Shown piece by piece: positions 1 through 6,619 of a DNA stretch of 64,000 nucleotides. Both the position numbers and the translations under genes were made by a program. The notes beneath the pieces are model-generated. The model was not told the DNA's origin, did no database searches, and saw nothing but the letters and a program-made list of their open reading frames with translations. Source of the stretch: an uncultured delta proteobacterium (lineage in GTDB: Bacteria > Desulfobacterota > Binatia > Binatales > Binataceae). Each line of letters opens with the position of its first letter. Positions within the stretch are counted from its first letter, which is position 1. The stretch is from the NCBI GenBank assembly GCA_963744545.1, contig CAVUUH010000044.1, positions 34,140-98,139 on the forward strand, read 5' to 3'.

Positions 1-78
1 CGCGCGTTTGCTCGATGGCTAGTTGTTCCGTTGCCGGCAGCGGGCCATACGCTTCACAACCCCGTTGGAAGGTGATCG

Positions 79-1350
79 CTACAAGTCATTATCGGTGTCA
101 TCGAGGGCTGCGAGTGCGGGATCATCTTCCGAGATGACGTCGATTCGGTCCGCCGGCTTGCCGGACATCAGTTCGTCGATGTTCTCGGCTATTCGATCGA
201 CGAATCGTCGTTGTCCCGGCAACTCATCCATCCGATTGTAGAGCACCACGATGCCGCGATCGTGCGCCGGTGAGAATTCCACGTGAGTCGTATACCCAGG
301 CGTGGTGCCGCCGTGCTCGAAGCGGCCCGACTCGACGTGAAACAGCCAGCTGAATGCCACCTCGGTATTAGGTTTCACCACTCCGCGAAGTTGATGGTCC
401 AGCGCGAACGCGGCGGGCAACGTCGCGCCGGGTGAACCGGGAGCAGCGCCGATAGCATAACGATCGGGATGGAGATTGGCGTCGAGCCAGGTGAGCAGGT
501 CGTCCGCCGTCGACTTTGCGCCTATCGCGCCGGCGAAGATTCCACCTTCACGAGATCCCGCGTCGACGGCATCCAGCGTAGCACCGTGGCCCTGTATCAA
601 GCGCTGCTCCTGATTCGGCGAAAGCGCGAACACGGTGTCGTTCATGCGCAATGGTCCCGTGATCTCGGTTCTGATCAGTTCCGGATACGGAACACCGGCG
701 CGCTGTGCGAGAGCGTATCCGAGCAAGCCGATACCCATGCTGCTGTAGAGATACTTCGCGTCGGCGGGTTTCGAGGTGCCGTGCCGCACGAGGAAGTCGT
801 GCAGCGCGACGCGGTCGTAGTCGGAGAATGGGTTGCTGGGATCCTTCGGCACGAGATTGTCGGGAACGCTGGGAAGCCCGGAGCGATGAGTCGCGAGGTC
901 GAGCAGGGTGATTTCTGTTTCATCCGGTCTCGCGGCGATATCGGGGAAAAGGATCGGGCGCAGCGGCTCGTCGAGACTGACTTTTCCCTGCGGGGCGAGC
1001 TGCGCGAGCGCGAGCCCGGTGAAGGTTTTCGTGACCGAGCCAATCTCGAAGATCGAGTCGACGCGCGCAGCGCCGTAGGTGAACACGCGGCGCTCGCCAT
1101 GATCGATTACGCCAATCACCACTCCGCAACCAGTCGATTCCCGCAGCAGGCCGTCCTTCACGACGGGTGCGAATTCGCCGTCGAGAGCCTGCTTAAGATC
1201 AGCGAGCGCGATCGGCGGTCTCGCTGGAAGGTTCGCCGCTCGAGGCGTCGGCGAATCGATGCTCCATAGCCCGAGTCGCAGTCCTGCGGCGGCGAACGCG
1301 CCGAGCACGACCATCCATTTGAGCCACCTGATGTAGCCGCGACGGTTCAT
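79..1350 (-). CDS. serine hydrolase, beta-lactamase (class C / esterase-like) family, N-terminal membrane anchor
   Basis: 423-aa ORF; S-x-x-K motif in 'EIGSVTKTFTG'; hydrophobic N-terminus 'WLKWMVVLGAFAAAGL'. Confidence 0.8.
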   Translation of the reverse strand: MNRRGYIRWLKWMVVLGAFAAAGLRLGLWSIDSPTPRAANLPARPPIALADLKQALDGEFAPVVKDGLLRESTGCGVVIGVIDHGERRVFTYGAARVDSIFEIGSVTKTFTGLALAQLAPQGKVSLDEPLRPILFPDIAARPDETEITLLDLATHRSGLPSVPDNLVPKDPSNPFSDYDRVALHDFLVRHGTSKPADAKYLYSSMGIGLLGYALAQRAGVPYPELIRTEITGPLRMNDTVFALSPNQEQRLIQGHGATLDAVDAGSREGGIFAGAIGAKSTADDLLTWLDANLHPDRYAIGAAPGSPGATLPAAFALDHQLRGVVKPNTEVAFSWLFHVESGRFEHGGTTPGYTTHVEFSPAHDRGIVVLYNRMDELPGQRRFVDRIAENIDELMSGKPADRIDVISEDDPALAALDDTDNDL

Positions 1351-1370
1351 ATGTCATAGTGAGCACGAAC

Positions 1371-1446
1371 GTGGCACAGGCTTCAGCCTGTGATTCTTTC
1401 CTGGATTTCCATGGACCAGAAAATCACAGGCTAAAGCCTGTGCCAC
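1371..1446. repeat. nested inverted repeat: two 18-bp palindromes CACAGGCT-NN-AGCCTGTG (1375-1392, 1425-1442) inside 25-nt arms that are themselves reverse complements (1 mismatch)
   Basis: read directly: gtggcacaggcttcagcctgtgatt ... aatcacaggctaaagcctgtgccac; lies 21-96 nt upstream of the minus-strand serine hydrolase start. Confidence 0.85.
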
Positions 1447-1555
1447 CAAAATCAAGAACCTGATTGCGAAAGGTTGTCCTCAACATTTCGCGATTATCAG
1501 TGGTGCAGAGCCCGTCCTGAGCCAAGCCGAAGGAGGTCACCCCTGCCGAAGGAAG

Positions 1556-1580
1556 TGTGAAACCCACCGCGGGTTTCACA
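1556..1580 (-). terminator. putative hairpin terminator after the L,D-transpeptidase gene
   Basis: 10-bp perfect stem tgtgaaaccc/gggtttcaca with 5-nt loop, 28 nt downstream of the stop at 1608; the T-tract is weak. Confidence 0.4.
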
Positions 1581-1607
1581 TTCAATAAGGTGATTTACCC
1601 TTCCCCG

Positions 1608-2438
1608 TCACGGGTTGATTATCACCAGCGTGCCCTTGGGGAGGAGTCGCGTCAGTTCTTCGATGTCCTCGTCGTCTACTGAGATGCATCCCGTAGTCCA
1701 GTTGATGTCGCCTCGGTTGAGTTCCGGTTCGTCGGTGCCGTGGATTCCGATTTTGCCGCCTACGCCTACCGGGTGGCCATCTTCGTGCGGCACTTCGCCG
1801 TCGTCGCGCATTTGTTCGTAGCGATGGCGGTCGAGGTCGTTTGGGTAGTTCAAGGTGAGGAACCAATCCCAGCGGGCGCTTGGATGCTTATTGATAATCG
1901 CGTAGACGCCCTCGGGTGTGCGCCGGTCGCCTTCCCACAATTTTGTGCCGGGCTCGAAGCTGCGTCCGAACACGGCGTGGTAGCTCTTAAACAGCCGGCT
2001 TTTGTAATAGACGATCAGTTGGTGGCGCTTTTTGAAAATCGTCACTGACCAATTGAGCGGATCGTCGAAAGCGATGGCGCGGGTCTTGTCGAACAGGAAC
2101 TGGCCCGGCGTCGGCACGCGATCGGTCCGCACCCCTTCAATTTTCACTTGCGTGAGCGGTCGCGGGGTGGACGCCGCGGTCGGCGTCGGTGTCGGAGTAG
2201 TTCCCGGACCGGGCGGCTCGGGCGTCGGCATCCCGGGATCTACATACTGGACCTGCTTCGGATTGTAAGGTGGAGGCGGCGGCAGCGTGCCTGCCTTCTC
2301 GGCGTCGCCGGCGGTGATCGGCGCGCTCTGCTGCGCGAGCATCGCGGCAGGACCGGCGAGCACCGGCTCGGCAGCGCACATCAAAACGATAGTCGCGGCA
2401 ATCAATGCGGCCGTGATCGATCCAGCAATCCTGCCCAT
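1608..2438 (-). CDS. L,D-transpeptidase (YkuD/ErfK family) with Pro-rich linker
   Basis: 276-aa ORF; catalytic pattern 'GIHGTDEP...NWTTGCISV'; signal/anchor at the N-terminus. Confidence 0.85.
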   Translation of the reverse strand: MGRIAGSITAALIAATIVLMCAAEPVLAGPAAMLAQQSAPITAGDAEKAGTLPPPPPYNPKQVQYVDPGMPTPEPPGPGTTPTPTPTAASTPRPLTQVKIEGVRTDRVPTPGQFLFDKTRAIAFDDPLNWSVTIFKKRHQLIVYYKSRLFKSYHAVFGRSFEPGTKLWEGDRRTPEGVYAIINKHPSARWDWFLTLNYPNDLDRHRYEQMRDDGEVPHEDGHPVGVGGKIGIHGTDEPELNRGDINWTTGCISVDDEDIEELTRLLPKGTLVIINP

Positions 2439-2564
2439 CAGCTCCAGCCAAGCTCCAGCATCGCGGTCACATTATGCATTTTGTAAACGCTTGGTGCGAA
2501 GGTCAATTGTAACGTAGCGTGAATATTTGATTTATCAGTCAGCCAACCACGGAGCTTTCTTGCA

Positions 2565-3080
2565 ATGGACACCAATCTTGCGCGCGCGATGGCCGGTCTC
2601 ACCACCGGAATATATGTTTTGACCACGCAGGAGAATGGGCGAAGCCACGGGATGTCGTCGTCGTGGGTGGCGCAGGCCTCGGGCGAGCCCGCGATGTTCA
2701 CGGCGGCGGTCGATAACGCGCACTTCAGCAAGGCCGTGATTGCGAGGACTGGCGCCTTCGGCTTGAACGTGGTGGGACGCCGCGGCCGCGCGCTCGAAGA
2801 TTATTTTTATTCGCCGCGCGCGCGGCGCGACAACAATCTCGACACGATCGAGTTCGAACTGTCGCCGACGCTGGCGGTGCCATGGCTGAAACTTGCGATG
2901 ATCGCTCTGGAAGCCCGCGTGATTGATAGCCACGTCGCCGGCGATCACACAATTTTCGTCGCGTCACCGGTGGGAGTCCGTATCAGCGCGAACGATCGTC
3001 CGCTGACGTCGCTCGATCTCGATTACGTTTATCTCGGCGGCAAGAATGTGGTCGCGCGCGATCGCTCGGGATGGGATTAG
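2565..3080 (+). CDS. flavin reductase family protein (FMN-binding split barrel)
   Basis: 171-aa ORF; 'LTTGIYVLTT...HGMSSSWVAQAS' is typical of flavin reductase-like domains. Confidence 0.8.
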   Translation: MDTNLARAMAGLTTGIYVLTTQENGRSHGMSSSWVAQASGEPAMFTAAVDNAHFSKAVIARTGAFGLNVVGRRGRALEDYFYSPRARRDNNLDTIEFELSPTLAVPWLKLAMIALEARVIDSHVAGDHTIFVASPVGVRISANDRPLTSLDLDYVYLGGKNVVARDRSGWD

Positions 3081-3162
3081 GAAGGCGGGCACGGCGGCCC
3101 GCCCCACTTAAACTTTCACGGCATGCCCCTCCTGAGTGGGGCGGGCCGCCGTGCCCGCCTTC
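3081..3162. repeat. perfect 28-bp inverted repeat with 26-nt spacer, candidate bidirectional terminator
   Basis: gaaggcgggcacggcggcccgccccact (3081-3108) is the exact reverse complement of 3135-3162; each arm contains its own 7-bp hairpin ggcgggc/gcccgcc; lies between convergent genes. Confidence 0.85.
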
Positions 3163-3236
3163 GGTACTGGCGTCATTTGAGGGCCGCTGACAAGGAGTGG
3201 CGTCATTTGCCGGGATGAACCGGAACCAATGCGGGA

Positions 3237-3521
3237 TCAAATGGGACGATAGAAAACCCTAGCCGCGAACCACCCTAACGCTGCGTACAAGACAACATTT
3301 GTTCCAAGCGAGATGACCAGCACCAATAATTGAAAGGCGATAGGGCTGCCAGCAGGTCCCGCCACTCCGATTGGTATTAAGAGTACTACGCCCGGCCAAA
3401 ACAGGAGGGACCAAGCCTCTGCCTCCATCATTGACGGGAAAATATACCCGGCCATGTAAATCCCTATCGGTATCAGCAACCCGACAAGCGCTCCCCAAGC
3501 GGCGGCGTGGCGTGGCTTCAT
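3237..3521 (-). CDS. small integral membrane protein (about 3 TM), passenger gene
   Basis: 94-aa hydrophobic ORF; its ATG overlaps the stop of the upstream 257-aa ORF (ATGA at 3518-3521). Confidence 0.55.
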   Translation of the reverse strand: MKPRHAAAWGALVGLLIPIGIYMAGYIFPSMMEAEAWSLLFWPGVVLLIPIGVAGPAGSPIAFQLLVLVISLGTNVVLYAALGWFAARVFYRPI

Positions 3522-4294
3522 TAAAGATTCTGCAAGAAACTGATCAATCGCTTTTTTTGATCGTCGCTCAACGGCACTGGAATCAGCACCTGAGCGAACT
3601 GCGGTGCATCGTTAGTGATCGGGTCTAACGCGACGTTGAACACCTTGGATTTGAGCGTTTTCGCTTGGCCCGTCTGGATTTCCGGCTTTTCTTGGATTTC
3701 TTCTTCAGATTTCAATTGCGCTTCCTCGTCATGAAGTTCCAGCGTTTCCGGTTCTTCTACTGGCGATTCTAGCTGGTCTTCCGTCGATATACCAGCATAT
3801 GCTAACGAGGCGCGAAAATCCTTCAAAAACCCATCCACGGCCTTCGCATTGAAGTGTTTATCAGCAATCAATTCAGATCGGAGTGTTTGATCCGAAGGAA
3901 TTTTCTTTCCCTTGAAACGATTGAAAAGTTCACGATAAGCCTGAGGCAGTAGCACAGCTTCTCGCAGCGCATTCTTTCCTCGATCCTGATCCGGGAAAAG
4001 CAGAATATTCACGGCGCGTTTGGTCACTACGGCGCGCTCTCCGCGCATTTCGATCAACCCAAATTTTTTCAATCCAGCCAAGACAGACAGGGCATCACCA
4101 TGCGCTTTGTTGAATCCCATGTGCGTGGCTGCTGATTCAATCGTTGACCCTGATTCATGGTCCGCGTCATAGAGCTTTTGCGCCCGCCCAACAGCGGCTT
4201 TCAGGCTCTCGGCAGGATAGGCGGGACTCCTAATCCGCTTCTTTTTAGGGGTCTTCGATGTTCCGCTATTCGATGCGTCTTTCTTAGATTCCAT
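3521..4294 (-). CDS. hypothetical protein, basic N-terminus, acidic linker, no family recognised; passenger gene
   Basis: 257-aa ORF; GAGGA Shine-Dalgarno upstream; near-consensus promoter upstream; translationally coupled to the membrane ORF. Confidence 0.65.
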   Translation of the reverse strand: MESKKDASNSGTSKTPKKKRIRSPAYPAESLKAAVGRAQKLYDADHESGSTIESAATHMGFNKAHGDALSVLAGLKKFGLIEMRGERAVVTKRAVNILLFPDQDRGKNALREAVLLPQAYRELFNRFKGKKIPSDQTLRSELIADKHFNAKAVDGFLKDFRASLAYAGISTEDQLESPVEEPETLELHDEEAQLKSEEEIQEKPEIQTGQAKTLKSKVFNVALDPITNDAPQFAQVLIPVPLSDDQKKRLISFLQNL

Positions 4295-4318
4295 TTTCGG
4301 AGTTTCCTCTGGACGAAG

Positions 4319-4348
4319 ATAATAAGCCTACCTGTCGGTGATAGTCAA
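4319..4348 (-). promoter_or_regulatory. putative sigma-70 promoter for the cargo operon (TTGACT-18-TATTAT on the minus strand)
   Basis: plus-strand agtcaa at 4343-4348 and ataata at 4319-4324, 18-nt spacer; about 25 nt upstream of the ATG at 4294. Confidence 0.45.
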
Positions 4349-4385
4349 GCCGTAGCGATTACGTTAAATTTACGGAGCTTACTGC

Positions 4386-4414
4386 TTGACATCAGTAGGG
4401 CATTACCGTAGAAT
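4386..4414 (+). promoter_or_regulatory. putative sigma-70 promoter (TTGACA-17-TAGAAT) reading toward the transposase
   Basis: ttgaca 4386-4391, 17-nt spacer, tagaat 4409-4414; divergent from the cargo promoter. Confidence 0.5.
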
Positions 4415-4686
4415 CCGGCCATGGAGATTTCGATGAGACTTTCAGTAGCCCCTACGTCCACGTTCACCGACGCGGCGGGCAACAACGAAAAGGCGCGCGC
4501 CCTGTCTGCTGGGGAGCAACAGGGACAACGCGCCGTGGTGAACTTTGAATTTAAGCCGACCGGCGTGAGTGGTTGCACACTCGCGCCGGTCACGTCTCCA
4601 ACGCATCCGAGTTACCGGACGGCATCGAAGTTGGCAATTTCTATTGTCGCCCCGTTCACTCGGCAGAGCAATACATGGGGCTGACA

Positions 4687-5853
4687 ATGAACGTTCTTCC
4701 CTTCGAAAAGCAGACTCAGATCATCGCGGCTCTAACTGAGGGCCTGTCCATCCGATCCGTCGCGCGCCTGTGCGATGTTGAGCGCAACACGATTGGCCGT
4801 CTCGCGCTTCGCATCGGAGAAGGCTGCGAGTCTTTGCATGATCGCACCATGCGCAACCTGCAAGTGAATCTCATCGAGCTGGATGAGCAATGGTCGTATG
4901 TCGCGAAAAAGCAGAAACGCGTCCGACAGGACGATCCCGCCGAAATCGGCGATGCGTGGCTTTTCATCGCGATGGCTGCGACTCAAAAAGCTATCATCAG
5001 CTTCTCAGTCGGAAAGCGCACGCAAGAAAACACATACGCGCTCGCGATGGATTTGCGCCATCGGATCATCAATCGCGCACAGATAACCAGCGACGGCTAC
5101 GCACCGTATATCGGTGCGGTCGAAAACGCGTTCGGCATGAACGTGGATTACGCGATGCTCACGAAACAATATGTCGGCGATTCCAATCTGCCGGATGCGG
5201 CGCATCGCTACAGCCCCGGCCACGTCGCGGGCATCGAAAAGACCGTAATAAGAGGACGCCCCGACAAGGATTTGATCAGCACGTCGTATGTCGAGCGTTT
5301 CAATCTGTCGAGCCGAATGCAGATGCGCCGGTTCACTCGATTGACGAACGGATTCTCAAAGAAGCTGGAAAATCACCGCGCGGCAGTGGCGTTGTGGATT
5401 TGTTTCTACAATTTCTGCCGCGTCCATGAAACGCTGCGCACGACGCCAGCGATGGCGCTGGGGGTGACAGATCATATTTGGACGATCAGTGAGCTAATCG
5501 CAGCCGCGCTTGAGCCTGTGGACGTGCCGCCTCTGCCGAAAGAGCCGGAAACCACACTGCGACCGGGAACGCGCCGATTCAGACTGATCGTCGGAAGTGG
5601 CGGGAAGGGAACTGAACAAACCGCGCTAGTGACTTTTAAGAGCATCGAAGGCGGCCTTGATGATTCGATCTGCGCTCAATATCCCAACGCTTCCAAGAAT
5701 CACGACAGCCAATATTTTAGGAGAAGGGTTAGCTGCCAAGAGCGCGGGAACAAGAAAATACAGAAGGCCCGCGACAACAGCAGCCGCGATCGCAAGACGC
5801 ACCGTCTCCTGACGAGCCGGGACTGCATACGTGTTTTTCGATACCTGGACTAA
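4687..5853 (+). CDS. IS1-family (single-ORF type) DDE transposase; 3' end uncertain
   Basis: 'MNVLPFEKQTQIIAALTEGLSIRSVARL...DEQWSYV...ITSDGYAPY...STSYVERFNLSSRMQMRRFTRLTNGFSKK' matches IS1-type transposases; ATG at 4687; homologues usually end near '...FRLIVGSGG' (about 5620), so the open tail to 5853 may be read-through. Confidence 0.8.
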   Translation: MNVLPFEKQTQIIAALTEGLSIRSVARLCDVERNTIGRLALRIGEGCESLHDRTMRNLQVNLIELDEQWSYVAKKQKRVRQDDPAEIGDAWLFIAMAATQKAIISFSVGKRTQENTYALAMDLRHRIINRAQITSDGYAPYIGAVENAFGMNVDYAMLTKQYVGDSNLPDAAHRYSPGHVAGIEKTVIRGRPDKDLISTSYVERFNLSSRMQMRRFTRLTNGFSKKLENHRAAVALWICFYNFCRVHETLRTTPAMALGVTDHIWTISELIAAALEPVDVPPLPKEPETTLRPGTRRFRLIVGSGGKGTEQTALVTFKSIEGGLDDSICAQYPNASKNHDSQYFRRRVSCQERGNKKIQKARDNSSRDRKTHRLLTSRDCIRVFRYLD

Positions 5854-5985
5854 AGCGGCGGCATTCGTTGGTGACATGTCGGCTAAAACCCGCGCATCAA
5901 TTTTGACGTATTGCTCCGAGACACTGTGTTCGAGTAACACGGCGGTTGGAGGATTTGGGGGATTTGGGTTTCCGTTGTCAGGCAT
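5626..5985 (-). CDS. hypothetical protein with C-terminal TM helices (weak call)
   Basis: 119-aa ORF inside the transposon right end; no clear SD; overlaps the open tail of the transposase ORF. Confidence 0.3.
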   Translation of the reverse strand: MPDNGNPNPPNPPTAVLLEHSVSEQYVKIDARVLADMSPTNAAALVQVSKNTYAVPARQETVRLAIAAAVVAGLLYFLVPALLAANPSPKILAVVILGSVGILSADRIIKAAFDALKSH

Positions 5986-6139
5986 CGGATTCGCGAACGG
6001 TAAAAACAGCGTTGAACGGGTGGCGTCATTTCAGCCCCCAGTGGCGTCTTTTGGCCGAATGACGCCAGTACCCCGCCTTCCTAATGCTTTGACCACCGGC
6101 AAAATCGTCTGATAGCATCCGCGCGCGGAGAGATTTCGG

Positions 6140-6619
6140 ATGGCAATCGAAAAGAACGAACTGCGGCGCGTAATGGGGCATTTCGCAACCGGCGTTACCG
6201 TGATCACGTCGCTCCGCACCTCCGGCGAACTGCATGGCCTGACCGCCAACGCGTTCACTTCCGTCTCGCTGATTCCCCCGCTAGCGCTGGTATGCGTCGA
6301 CAAGAAGGCCGAGAGCTATCCGTGTTTCGAGGAGAGCAAGATCTTCACCGTCAACGTATTGGCGTCCGACCAGGAAGCGCTGTCGCGCAAGTTTGCGGTC
6401 AGCGGCGGCAACAAGTTCGAAGGCGTCAGCTACAAGATCGGAGCGAACGGCGCACCGATCCTCGACGGCGCGCTTGCGTATCTGGAATGCAAGGTGACTG
6501 TCGCGATCGACGGCGGCGACCATACGATTTACCTCGGCGAAATCGAGCAGGCCGAGACTCCGCATGAAGGCAAGCCGCTCCTGTTCTTCCGCGGCGGCTA
6601 CCGCGAGCTTGGCGATTAG
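6140..6619 (+). CDS. flavin reductase (HpaC/NADH:FMN oxidoreductase-like)
   Basis: 159-aa ORF; 'LRRVMGHFATGVTVITS...HGLTANAFTSVSLIPPLALVCV'. Confidence 0.85.
   Translation: MAIEKNELRRVMGHFATGVTVITSLRTSGELHGLTANAFTSVSLIPPLALVCVDKKAESYPCFEESKIFTVNVLASDQEALSRKFAVSGGNKFEGVSYKIGANGAPILDGALAYLECKVTVAIDGGDHTIYLGEIEQAETPHEGKPLLFFRGGYRELGD

Follow-up and report, generated by a model that had tools for sequence, protein, structure and literature searches.

A probable passenger-carrying IS1-family element, present and absent at one locus of an uncultured Binataceae lineage

In an uncultured member of the Binataceae, two flavin-reductase genes are separated by about 2.9 kb of DNA that is richer in AT than its surroundings. 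What is this segment, how did it come to lie there, and what does it carry? The window analyzed here, a whole stretch of 64 kb (64,000 nucleotides; assembly GCA_963744545.1, contig CAVUUH010000044.1, positions 34,140 to 98,139), was first annotated by a model from its letters; that annotation is termed the original prediction below. Window positions 3163-6072 are very probably a 2,910-bp transporter insertion sequence (tIS) of the IS1 family, an insertion sequence (IS) that holds passenger genes and was recently inserted.

Boundaries and alleles

Four features delimit the element; the empty site mentioned in the first line is that of locus L005, described below.

3155-3162, no strand: left copy of the target-site duplication (TSD), CCGCCTTC, present as a single copy at the L005 empty site
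3163-3177, plus strand: left terminal inverted repeat (TIR), GGTACTGGCGTCATT, which includes terminal site 1, TGGCGTCAT, at 3168 and starts GGTnnTG as in Escherichia coli IS1
6058-6072, minus strand: right TIR, AATGACGCCAGTACC, the reverse complement of the left TIR
6073-6080, no strand: right copy of the TSD, CCGCCTTC

Both repeats had been placed at these positions by the original prediction, and both are there: the 15-mer at 3163-3177 recurs as its exact reverse complement at 6058-6072, with the same 8-mer just outside each copy. Across the window, the 15-mer occurs once per strand. The inverted repeat of the two ends covers 15 of 16 bases and then breaks off. By our arithmetic, about 1e-5 such TIR and TSD pairs would be expected by chance (23 bases matched, some 6e8 pairs of positions lying within 10 kb of each other), so chance does not explain the arrangement. 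Both ends read GGTACTG, in keeping with the GGnnnTG termini of the IS1 family. The interior was described as AT-richer than the flanks, and its GC content is indeed 53.7%, below the 60.2% of the window and the 60-61% of the flanks. A composite transposon is ruled out, as there is one transposase gene and no second IS copy in the element or the window.

The exact empty site is found in a related strain. Locus L005 (GCA_049800595.1), retrieved by exact look-up of the upstream flavin reductase, corresponds to window 1-3162 (99.4% identity) running straight into 6072-6178, with a 9-nt overlap and a single copy of the 8-mer. Its junction reads gtgcccgccttcTtaatgcttt; the predicted empty site thus exists, with one single-nucleotide polymorphism. 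Because a related strain has this exact empty site, the whole 2,910 bp is one mobile unit. The extra genes lie inside that unit, all of which is missing from the empty site, and the proposal of a cargo-carrying IS therefore stands. The single 8-mer in L005 is the ancestral state rather than an excision scar.

The same assembly, GCA_049800595.1, also holds a filled right junction: locus L003 begins within the element, at window 5926, and runs over the junction with 99.9% identity. Since one assembly contains both states, the insertion is polymorphic among closely related strains. A filled site that is 99.9% identical, with an intact 313-aa transposase, is present in L004 (GCA_049280435.1) and in L087, a Logan assembly of SRR28012342 that probably represents the same data as L004. 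The insertion is recent and occurred in the source lineage: filled and empty alleles coexist, and TIR and TSD are perfect.

The contigs L004 and L087 both start inside the element, at window 3470, as does L003, at window 5926; all are short-read contigs. Such fixed breaks would fit repeats, or strain variants with common outer element parts, in those samples.

Relatives of the element have the same kind of boundaries. A scan of one genome per species yielded 80 related loci, which were searched, no motif being assumed, for exact direct repeats of 8 bp that immediately enclose an inverted repeat. This recovered 46 independent elements of 2.2-7.5 kb, each with one TIR pair and one 8-bp TSD, the 8-mers being varied. 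All 46 have termini GGTRCTGK or GGCACTGT (that is, GGTRCTG or GGCACTG). Within the single TIR pair and TSD, passenger content differs between relatives. One relative, L001, spans 3,173 bp; its transposase is 93% identical to that of the window, its ends are the same, and its TSD is GCGCGGAG. The kind of ends and the 8-bp duplication seen in the window thus recur with other copies of the transposase. The relatives also settle the length of the duplication, for which the original prediction had mentioned a 9-mer as well. The 9-mer CCCGCCTTC does match on both sides, but by coincidence, since the last base of the element is itself a C. In only 14 of the 46 relatives does a C precede the left 8-mer, so the duplication is 8 bp, not 9.

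The transposase

The element has one transposase gene.

4687-5853, plus strand: DDE transposase of the IS1 family, which properly stops at the TAG of 5627-5629 (313 aa); an extra G at 5614 extends the open reading frame (ORF) to 5853 (388 aa)

This single ORF encodes an amino-terminal helix-turn-helix (HTH) followed by the catalytic motifs DEQW, SDGY, and VERFN. Its homologues, of about 313 aa, number in the thousands; many are from Candidatus Binataceae, and in their sources they are named IS1 family transposase. Three comparisons uphold the predicted IS1-type transposase. Pfam DDE_Tnp_IS1 matches with 40 bits (cut-off 24.1). In BLASTP, the E. coli IS1 protein InsAB' aligns through the HTH and the DEQW motif with E = 5e-8. 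Profile alignment (hhalign) to InsAB', rebuilt from an annotated IS1 copy (NZ_AP018803.1, L096), gives a probability of 97% over 218 columns, with DEQW/DEQW, SDGY/TDGW, and VERFN/IERHN aligned.

The element and E. coli IS1 thus share a DDE transposase in which an HTH precedes DEQW, DG, and ERxN motifs. They share GGTnnTG termini as well (GGTGATG/GGTAATG in IS1, GGTACTG here), and the 8-bp TSD falls within the 8-9 bp duplicated by IS1. Differences are equally clear. IS1 measures 768 bp and lacks cargo, whereas the element measures 2,910 bp. In IS1, a -1 frameshift that joins insA to insB' (annotated "programmed frameshift") yields the transposase, whereas the element has one 313-aa ORF, without the zinc finger of InsA. 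Relative to IS1, the transposase is extended at its carboxyl terminus by about 70 aa, and about 45 aa are inserted between the second D and the E. The element further differs from IS1 in its asymmetric multi-site ends and its structured leader, described below.

Several observations weigh against an active IS1-family element. The Pfam match spans only half of the model, and the NCBIfam IS1 equivalog, NF033558, scores 66.2 bits, under its cut-off of 100, while still being the top transposase model. No insA/insB' pair, frameshift site, or zinc finger (no CxxC pair) was found in the element. All relatives have the single ~313-aa ORF, which departs from the classical two-ORF arrangement of IS1 and fits only single-ORF subgroups. 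The window contains a single copy of the element. Finally, the extra G at 5614 puts the window transposase out of frame (+1) from four codons ahead of its stop.

Is the window copy then a dead relic, its transposase inactivated and its autonomous movement lost? We regard this as possible but doubtful. Transposases of all relatives finish near GGKGTNKPR (L004 ends GKGTNKPR-stop), and in the window NKPR-stop is replaced by a 79-residue read-through that overlaps the 119-aa ORF described below. However, only the last four residues are altered, and these vary between relatives; the HTH and DDE domain are unaffected. L004 and L087, whose copy at this site is nearly identical, lack the frameshift. 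Compared with that copy, the window has two 1-nt insertions, the G at 5614 and an A at 4636 in a linker of the leader, and this second insertion raises the possibility that both are assembly errors. They may also be true mutations; if the frameshift is real, the window copy may be impaired or may rely on transposase supplied in trans. A recently inserted element remains the preferred reading.

Ends, passenger genes, and leader

Inside the TIRs, the ends contain further copies of the 9-mer that follows GGTAC in the terminal repeat.

3197-3209, plus strand: left subterminal repeat GTGGCGTCATTTG, direct relative to the terminal site; the layout is family-wide
6020-6053, plus strand: subterminal repeats of the right end, GTGGCGTCATTTC at 6020-6032 and GTGGCGTCTTTTG at 6041-6053; both run inverted to the right terminal site

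The left end has 9-mers at 3168 and 3198, both direct; on the right, the terminal copy is joined by two inverted ones, at 6042 and 6021. Among the 46 elements, left ends contain extra direct copies in 35 (near +26 and +48) and inverted copies in five. Right ends show the reverse: inverted copies in 35 (near +13 and +35) and direct copies in five. An interior control segment contained site copies in two of the 46. The repeat motif varies by transposase subgroup while the layout stays constant, which points to predicted protein-binding sites that co-evolve with the transposase. Conservation of the asymmetry across relatives suggests that left and right ends, with their direct and inverted copies, differ in function.

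By analogy with IS1, transposase would bind the repeated 9-mer sites at both ends, cut at the GG termini, and join the ends to a target cut with an 8-bp stagger, whose repair would generate the target duplication. The passenger ORFs would be carried along.

A metagenome scan for the left-end pattern retrieved one further left end, at 2567-2613 of L097 (Ga0074044_10002120), with the same TGGCGTCAT sites. No recognizable transposase was found in the 11.6 kb of its contig that were covered; the end may belong to a decayed element or to one with much longer cargo.

Three ORFs of the interior are read as passengers.

3521-4294, minus strand: 257-aa passenger gene of an uncharacterized family, with a winged-helix-like amino-terminal domain; at the same position and on the same strand in 20 of the 46 elements
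3237-3521, minus strand: 94-aa ORF, three hydrophobic segments being predicted; start and 257-aa stop overlap (TAATG), and its status as a gene is uncertain
5626-5985, minus strand: 119-aa passenger ORF with two predicted hydrophobic segments, convergent with the transposase

The original prediction counted three non-transposase ORFs. Homologues exist for the 257-aa and 119-aa ORFs; the sole support for the 94-aa ORF is its overlap with the 257-aa stop codon. Pfam, NCBIfam, PHROGs, and PADLOC offered no family for any of them, nor for the 87-aa ORF upstream of the transposase. The one exception, a weak PADLOC match to PDC-M34A (E = 0.004, three of 26 family members), was set aside as untrustworthy.

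The 257-aa protein has 44 homologues, all unnamed; an exhaustive search returned 6,917 clusters. Its AlphaFold2 model (pLDDT 73) includes an amino-terminal helix-helix-helix-strand-strand unit, for which Foldseek gave weak matches (E >= 7e-3), to winged-helix domains only. Neither a sequence search of the PDB with the family profile (nothing under E = 0.05) nor Foldseek searches of the PDB and BFVD (nothing at E <= 0.001) added to these. The protein probably binds DNA.

Might it be an accessory factor or regulator of transposition encoded by the element, such as a binder of the subterminal repeats or of the divergent promoter, rather than a passenger? This seems unlikely. The gene does lie directly upstream of the transposase gene, and divergent from it, in the 20 elements that have it (gap 260-510 bp). 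Promoter-like sites stand back to back between the two genes in the window, and a winged-helix-like domain would suit such a role. However, 26 of the 46 elements have the same end architecture without the gene and contain unrelated genes there. Moreover, the repeat motif tracks the transposase subgroup rather than the presence of the gene, homologues also occur away from any IS1-like transposase gene, and the fold matches are weak. We therefore continue to treat it as a passenger.

In the closest Binataceae relatives (L007, L009, L010, L011, L021, and L057), the 257-aa gene is replaced by one for a protein of about 360 aa with an IALIDEVTGY motif. This protein may resemble P63C-domain phage proteins. 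The idea that these replacement genes are distant homologues of the 257-aa gene was rejected (hhalign probability 0.1).

The 119-aa ORF has two homologues among 5.8 billion proteins, with 50-55% identity; one adjoins a transposase 3' end and the other an element end, the arrangement seen here. No homologue of the 94-aa ORF was found in the 80 related loci, and its exact sequence is not in the protein collection. The 94-aa and 119-aa products are probably membrane proteins. The intact transposase gene and the convergent 119-aa ORF stop on one palindrome, CTAG (5626-5629), which supplies a TAG on each strand.

Between the 257-aa gene and the transposase lie two further features.

4319-4414: divergent promoter-like sites, one on the minus strand (TTGACT-18-TATTAT, 4348-4319) and one on the plus strand (TTGACA-17-TAGAAT, 4386-4414); consensus matches only
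4433-4686, plus strand: structured 5' leader of the transposase, with eight helices, helix 8 lying over the ATG at 4687

The plus-strand promoter-like site matches at 11 of 12 positions and ends at 4414, upstream of the leader. The leader is 71-82% identical in nucleotide sequence to those of relatives, including L019, whose transposase is only 61% identical in protein. RNAalifold predicted eight helices in the leader alignment, with 97% of cells paired and 11 pairs changed on both sides. None of 500 shuffles reached the observed score, and slid controls were 32-43% paired. The window leader folded on its own gives z = -4.0. In helix 8, 4642-4654 pairs with 4676-4689, the transposase ATG included. 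An Rfam scan of 2900-6400 gave no match to the leader; sub-threshold matches only were obtained, to the host hairpin described below and to a snoRNA model.

Does 4433-4684 instead code for a small protein, analogous to InsA upstream of InsB in IS1? One point against an RNA leader is that an ORF with an invariant ATGAGA start (4433) spans the whole leader and is open in all 11 relatives, which leaves room for a small peptide. In addition, its amino-terminal ~25 residues are alike between relatives, and in the window it stops 2 nt ahead of the transposase ATG. Yet internal indels shift the frame between relatives, and variable sites number 13, 8, and 9 by codon phase, without third-position enrichment. 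The ORF has no Pfam or NCBIfam match and no cysteine pairs of the InsA zinc-finger kind; the 313-aa transposase already has an HTH. Together with the base-pair covariation, these points make a coding role quite improbable. The 87-aa ORF is better read as a structured RNA leader, with small residual doubt. As its conservation suggests, the leader of about 250 nt would keep transposase translation low, its last helix pairing with the start codon.

Host site and place among known elements

The target of the insertion was itself a structured sequence.

3076-3162 plus 6081-6085 (CTAAT), no strand: host target hairpin, with a 33-bp perfect stem and a 26-nt loop, beginning in the stop codon of the upstream flavin-reductase gene

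In the uninterrupted site, the hairpin ATTAGGAAGGCGGG...CCCGCCTTCCTAAT folds with -89.5 kcal/mol. ATTAG at 3076-3080 is complementary to CTAAT at 6081-6085 across the element. The original prediction located the insertion at the foot of a 28-bp hairpin, which proved wrong: it lies within the 3' arm of the 33-bp hairpin, so that 28 bp of stem stay on the left, CTAAT is displaced to 6081-6085, and 8 bp of the arm are duplicated. The prediction was right that the element separates two flavin-reductase genes, for both neighbors match Pfam Flavin_Reduct (E = 3e-26 and 1e-45). A family preference for structured targets was considered and rejected (mean -30.3 kcal/mol for reconstructed empty sites, -34.5 kcal/mol for flanking controls). 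Because empty sites are no more stable than these controls, the hairpin target is incidental. At the host locus, the effect of the insertion looks close to neutral: 28 bp of stem remain in the upstream hairpin, and the downstream gene has kept its promoter-like site (6089-6118).

Another long hairpin lies at 1371-1446, between a beta-lactamase-like gene and a YkuD-domain gene; its 25-bp arms are 96% complementary and its loop, as in the target hairpin, measures 26 nt. Long intergenic hairpins may be a class that the source genome uses.

Which known elements does this one resemble? Membership of the IS1595 family is very improbable: for it speak a weak NCBIfam IS1595 match (29 bits, E = 7e-7) and the combination of an 8-bp TSD with passenger genes (8-bp duplications and passenger-gene subgroups are typical of IS1595), but that match, to NF033547 (29.3 bits, cut-off 75), is a wide miss and is exceeded by the IS1 model (66), the Pfam DDE_Tnp_IS1 match is above its cut-off, the direct alignment to E. 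coli IS1 takes in all three catalytic motifs with a significant score, and the GGTnnTG termini are held in common with IS1.

Among its closest parallels are tIS, known from several IS families; IS1595 is one of these, and the ISMhu11 subgroup of IS1 is another example. The element resembles them in combining one transposase with non-transposition genes in one TIR pair, in moving as a unit, and in having one TSD; as in tIS, passenger content varies between its relatives. We know of no described tIS with the recurrent 257-aa family or with the leader. Several IS families include members that carry passenger genes (PMC7986276). The kind of element is thus known, an IS1-family IS with passenger genes, and its end architecture and leader may be new at subgroup level.

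Homologues of the clade's transposase number in the thousands, mostly from Binatia and soil Alphaproteobacteria. IS1-family elements annotated in cultured Alphaproteobacteria (Acidiphilium multivorum, Hoeflea, Mesorhizobium loti, and Methylocapsa polymorpha) encode proteins 44-47% identical to the transposase. PGAP labels three of these four copies "IS1 family transposase"; that of Methylocapsa is a helix-turn-helix domain-containing protein. All differ from the window element in having neither the 257-aa gene family nor a Binataceae-type leader, and in their repeat motif. The Acidiphilium multivorum copy, on plasmid NZ_CP041717.1, measures 2,634 bp; its ends are GGTAGTGTCTCAGTTT and its 8-bp TSD is AAGCCGAG. 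It is tempting, if tentative, to see the clade as an undescribed IS1 subgroup, defined by a single-ORF, zinc-finger-free transposase; left and right ends that differ in function and have three sites each; in Binataceae, a new cis-regulatory RNA leader that occludes the start codon; and frequent carriage of the uncharacterized winged-helix family.

Some relatives share features of their insertion sites. Near-identical TSDs ending TGATC occur in the alphaproteobacterial relatives L063, L065, L066 (one metagenome-assembled genome, CAWDSJ01), L071, and L085: GTTTGATC (twice), GATCAAAT, CTTCGATC, and AATTGATC. CCCCTT-like 8-mers are common to another set. It may be that some subgroups prefer certain targets or insert into a repeated sequence. 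In cultured relatives (L088, NZ_CP041717.1, 4883-5721; L089, a Methylocapsa plasmid, 455-1633), the element adjoins a RES/Xre toxin-antitoxin pair just beyond its right end and, in Methylocapsa, is near a Shedu nuclease gene. The elements of cultured relatives occupy accessory or defense-rich plasmid regions.

Together, these results describe a fully delimited IS1-family element with passenger genes, whose presence/absence polymorphism could be observed in an uncultured lineage. Its exact boundaries can be used to annotate thousands of related "IS1 family transposase" genes that lack defined ends. Moreover, the asymmetric ends and the covarying leader provide testable hypotheses about the control of transposition in this branch of the family, and the relative on the Acidiphilium multivorum plasmid offers a cultured route to testing them.

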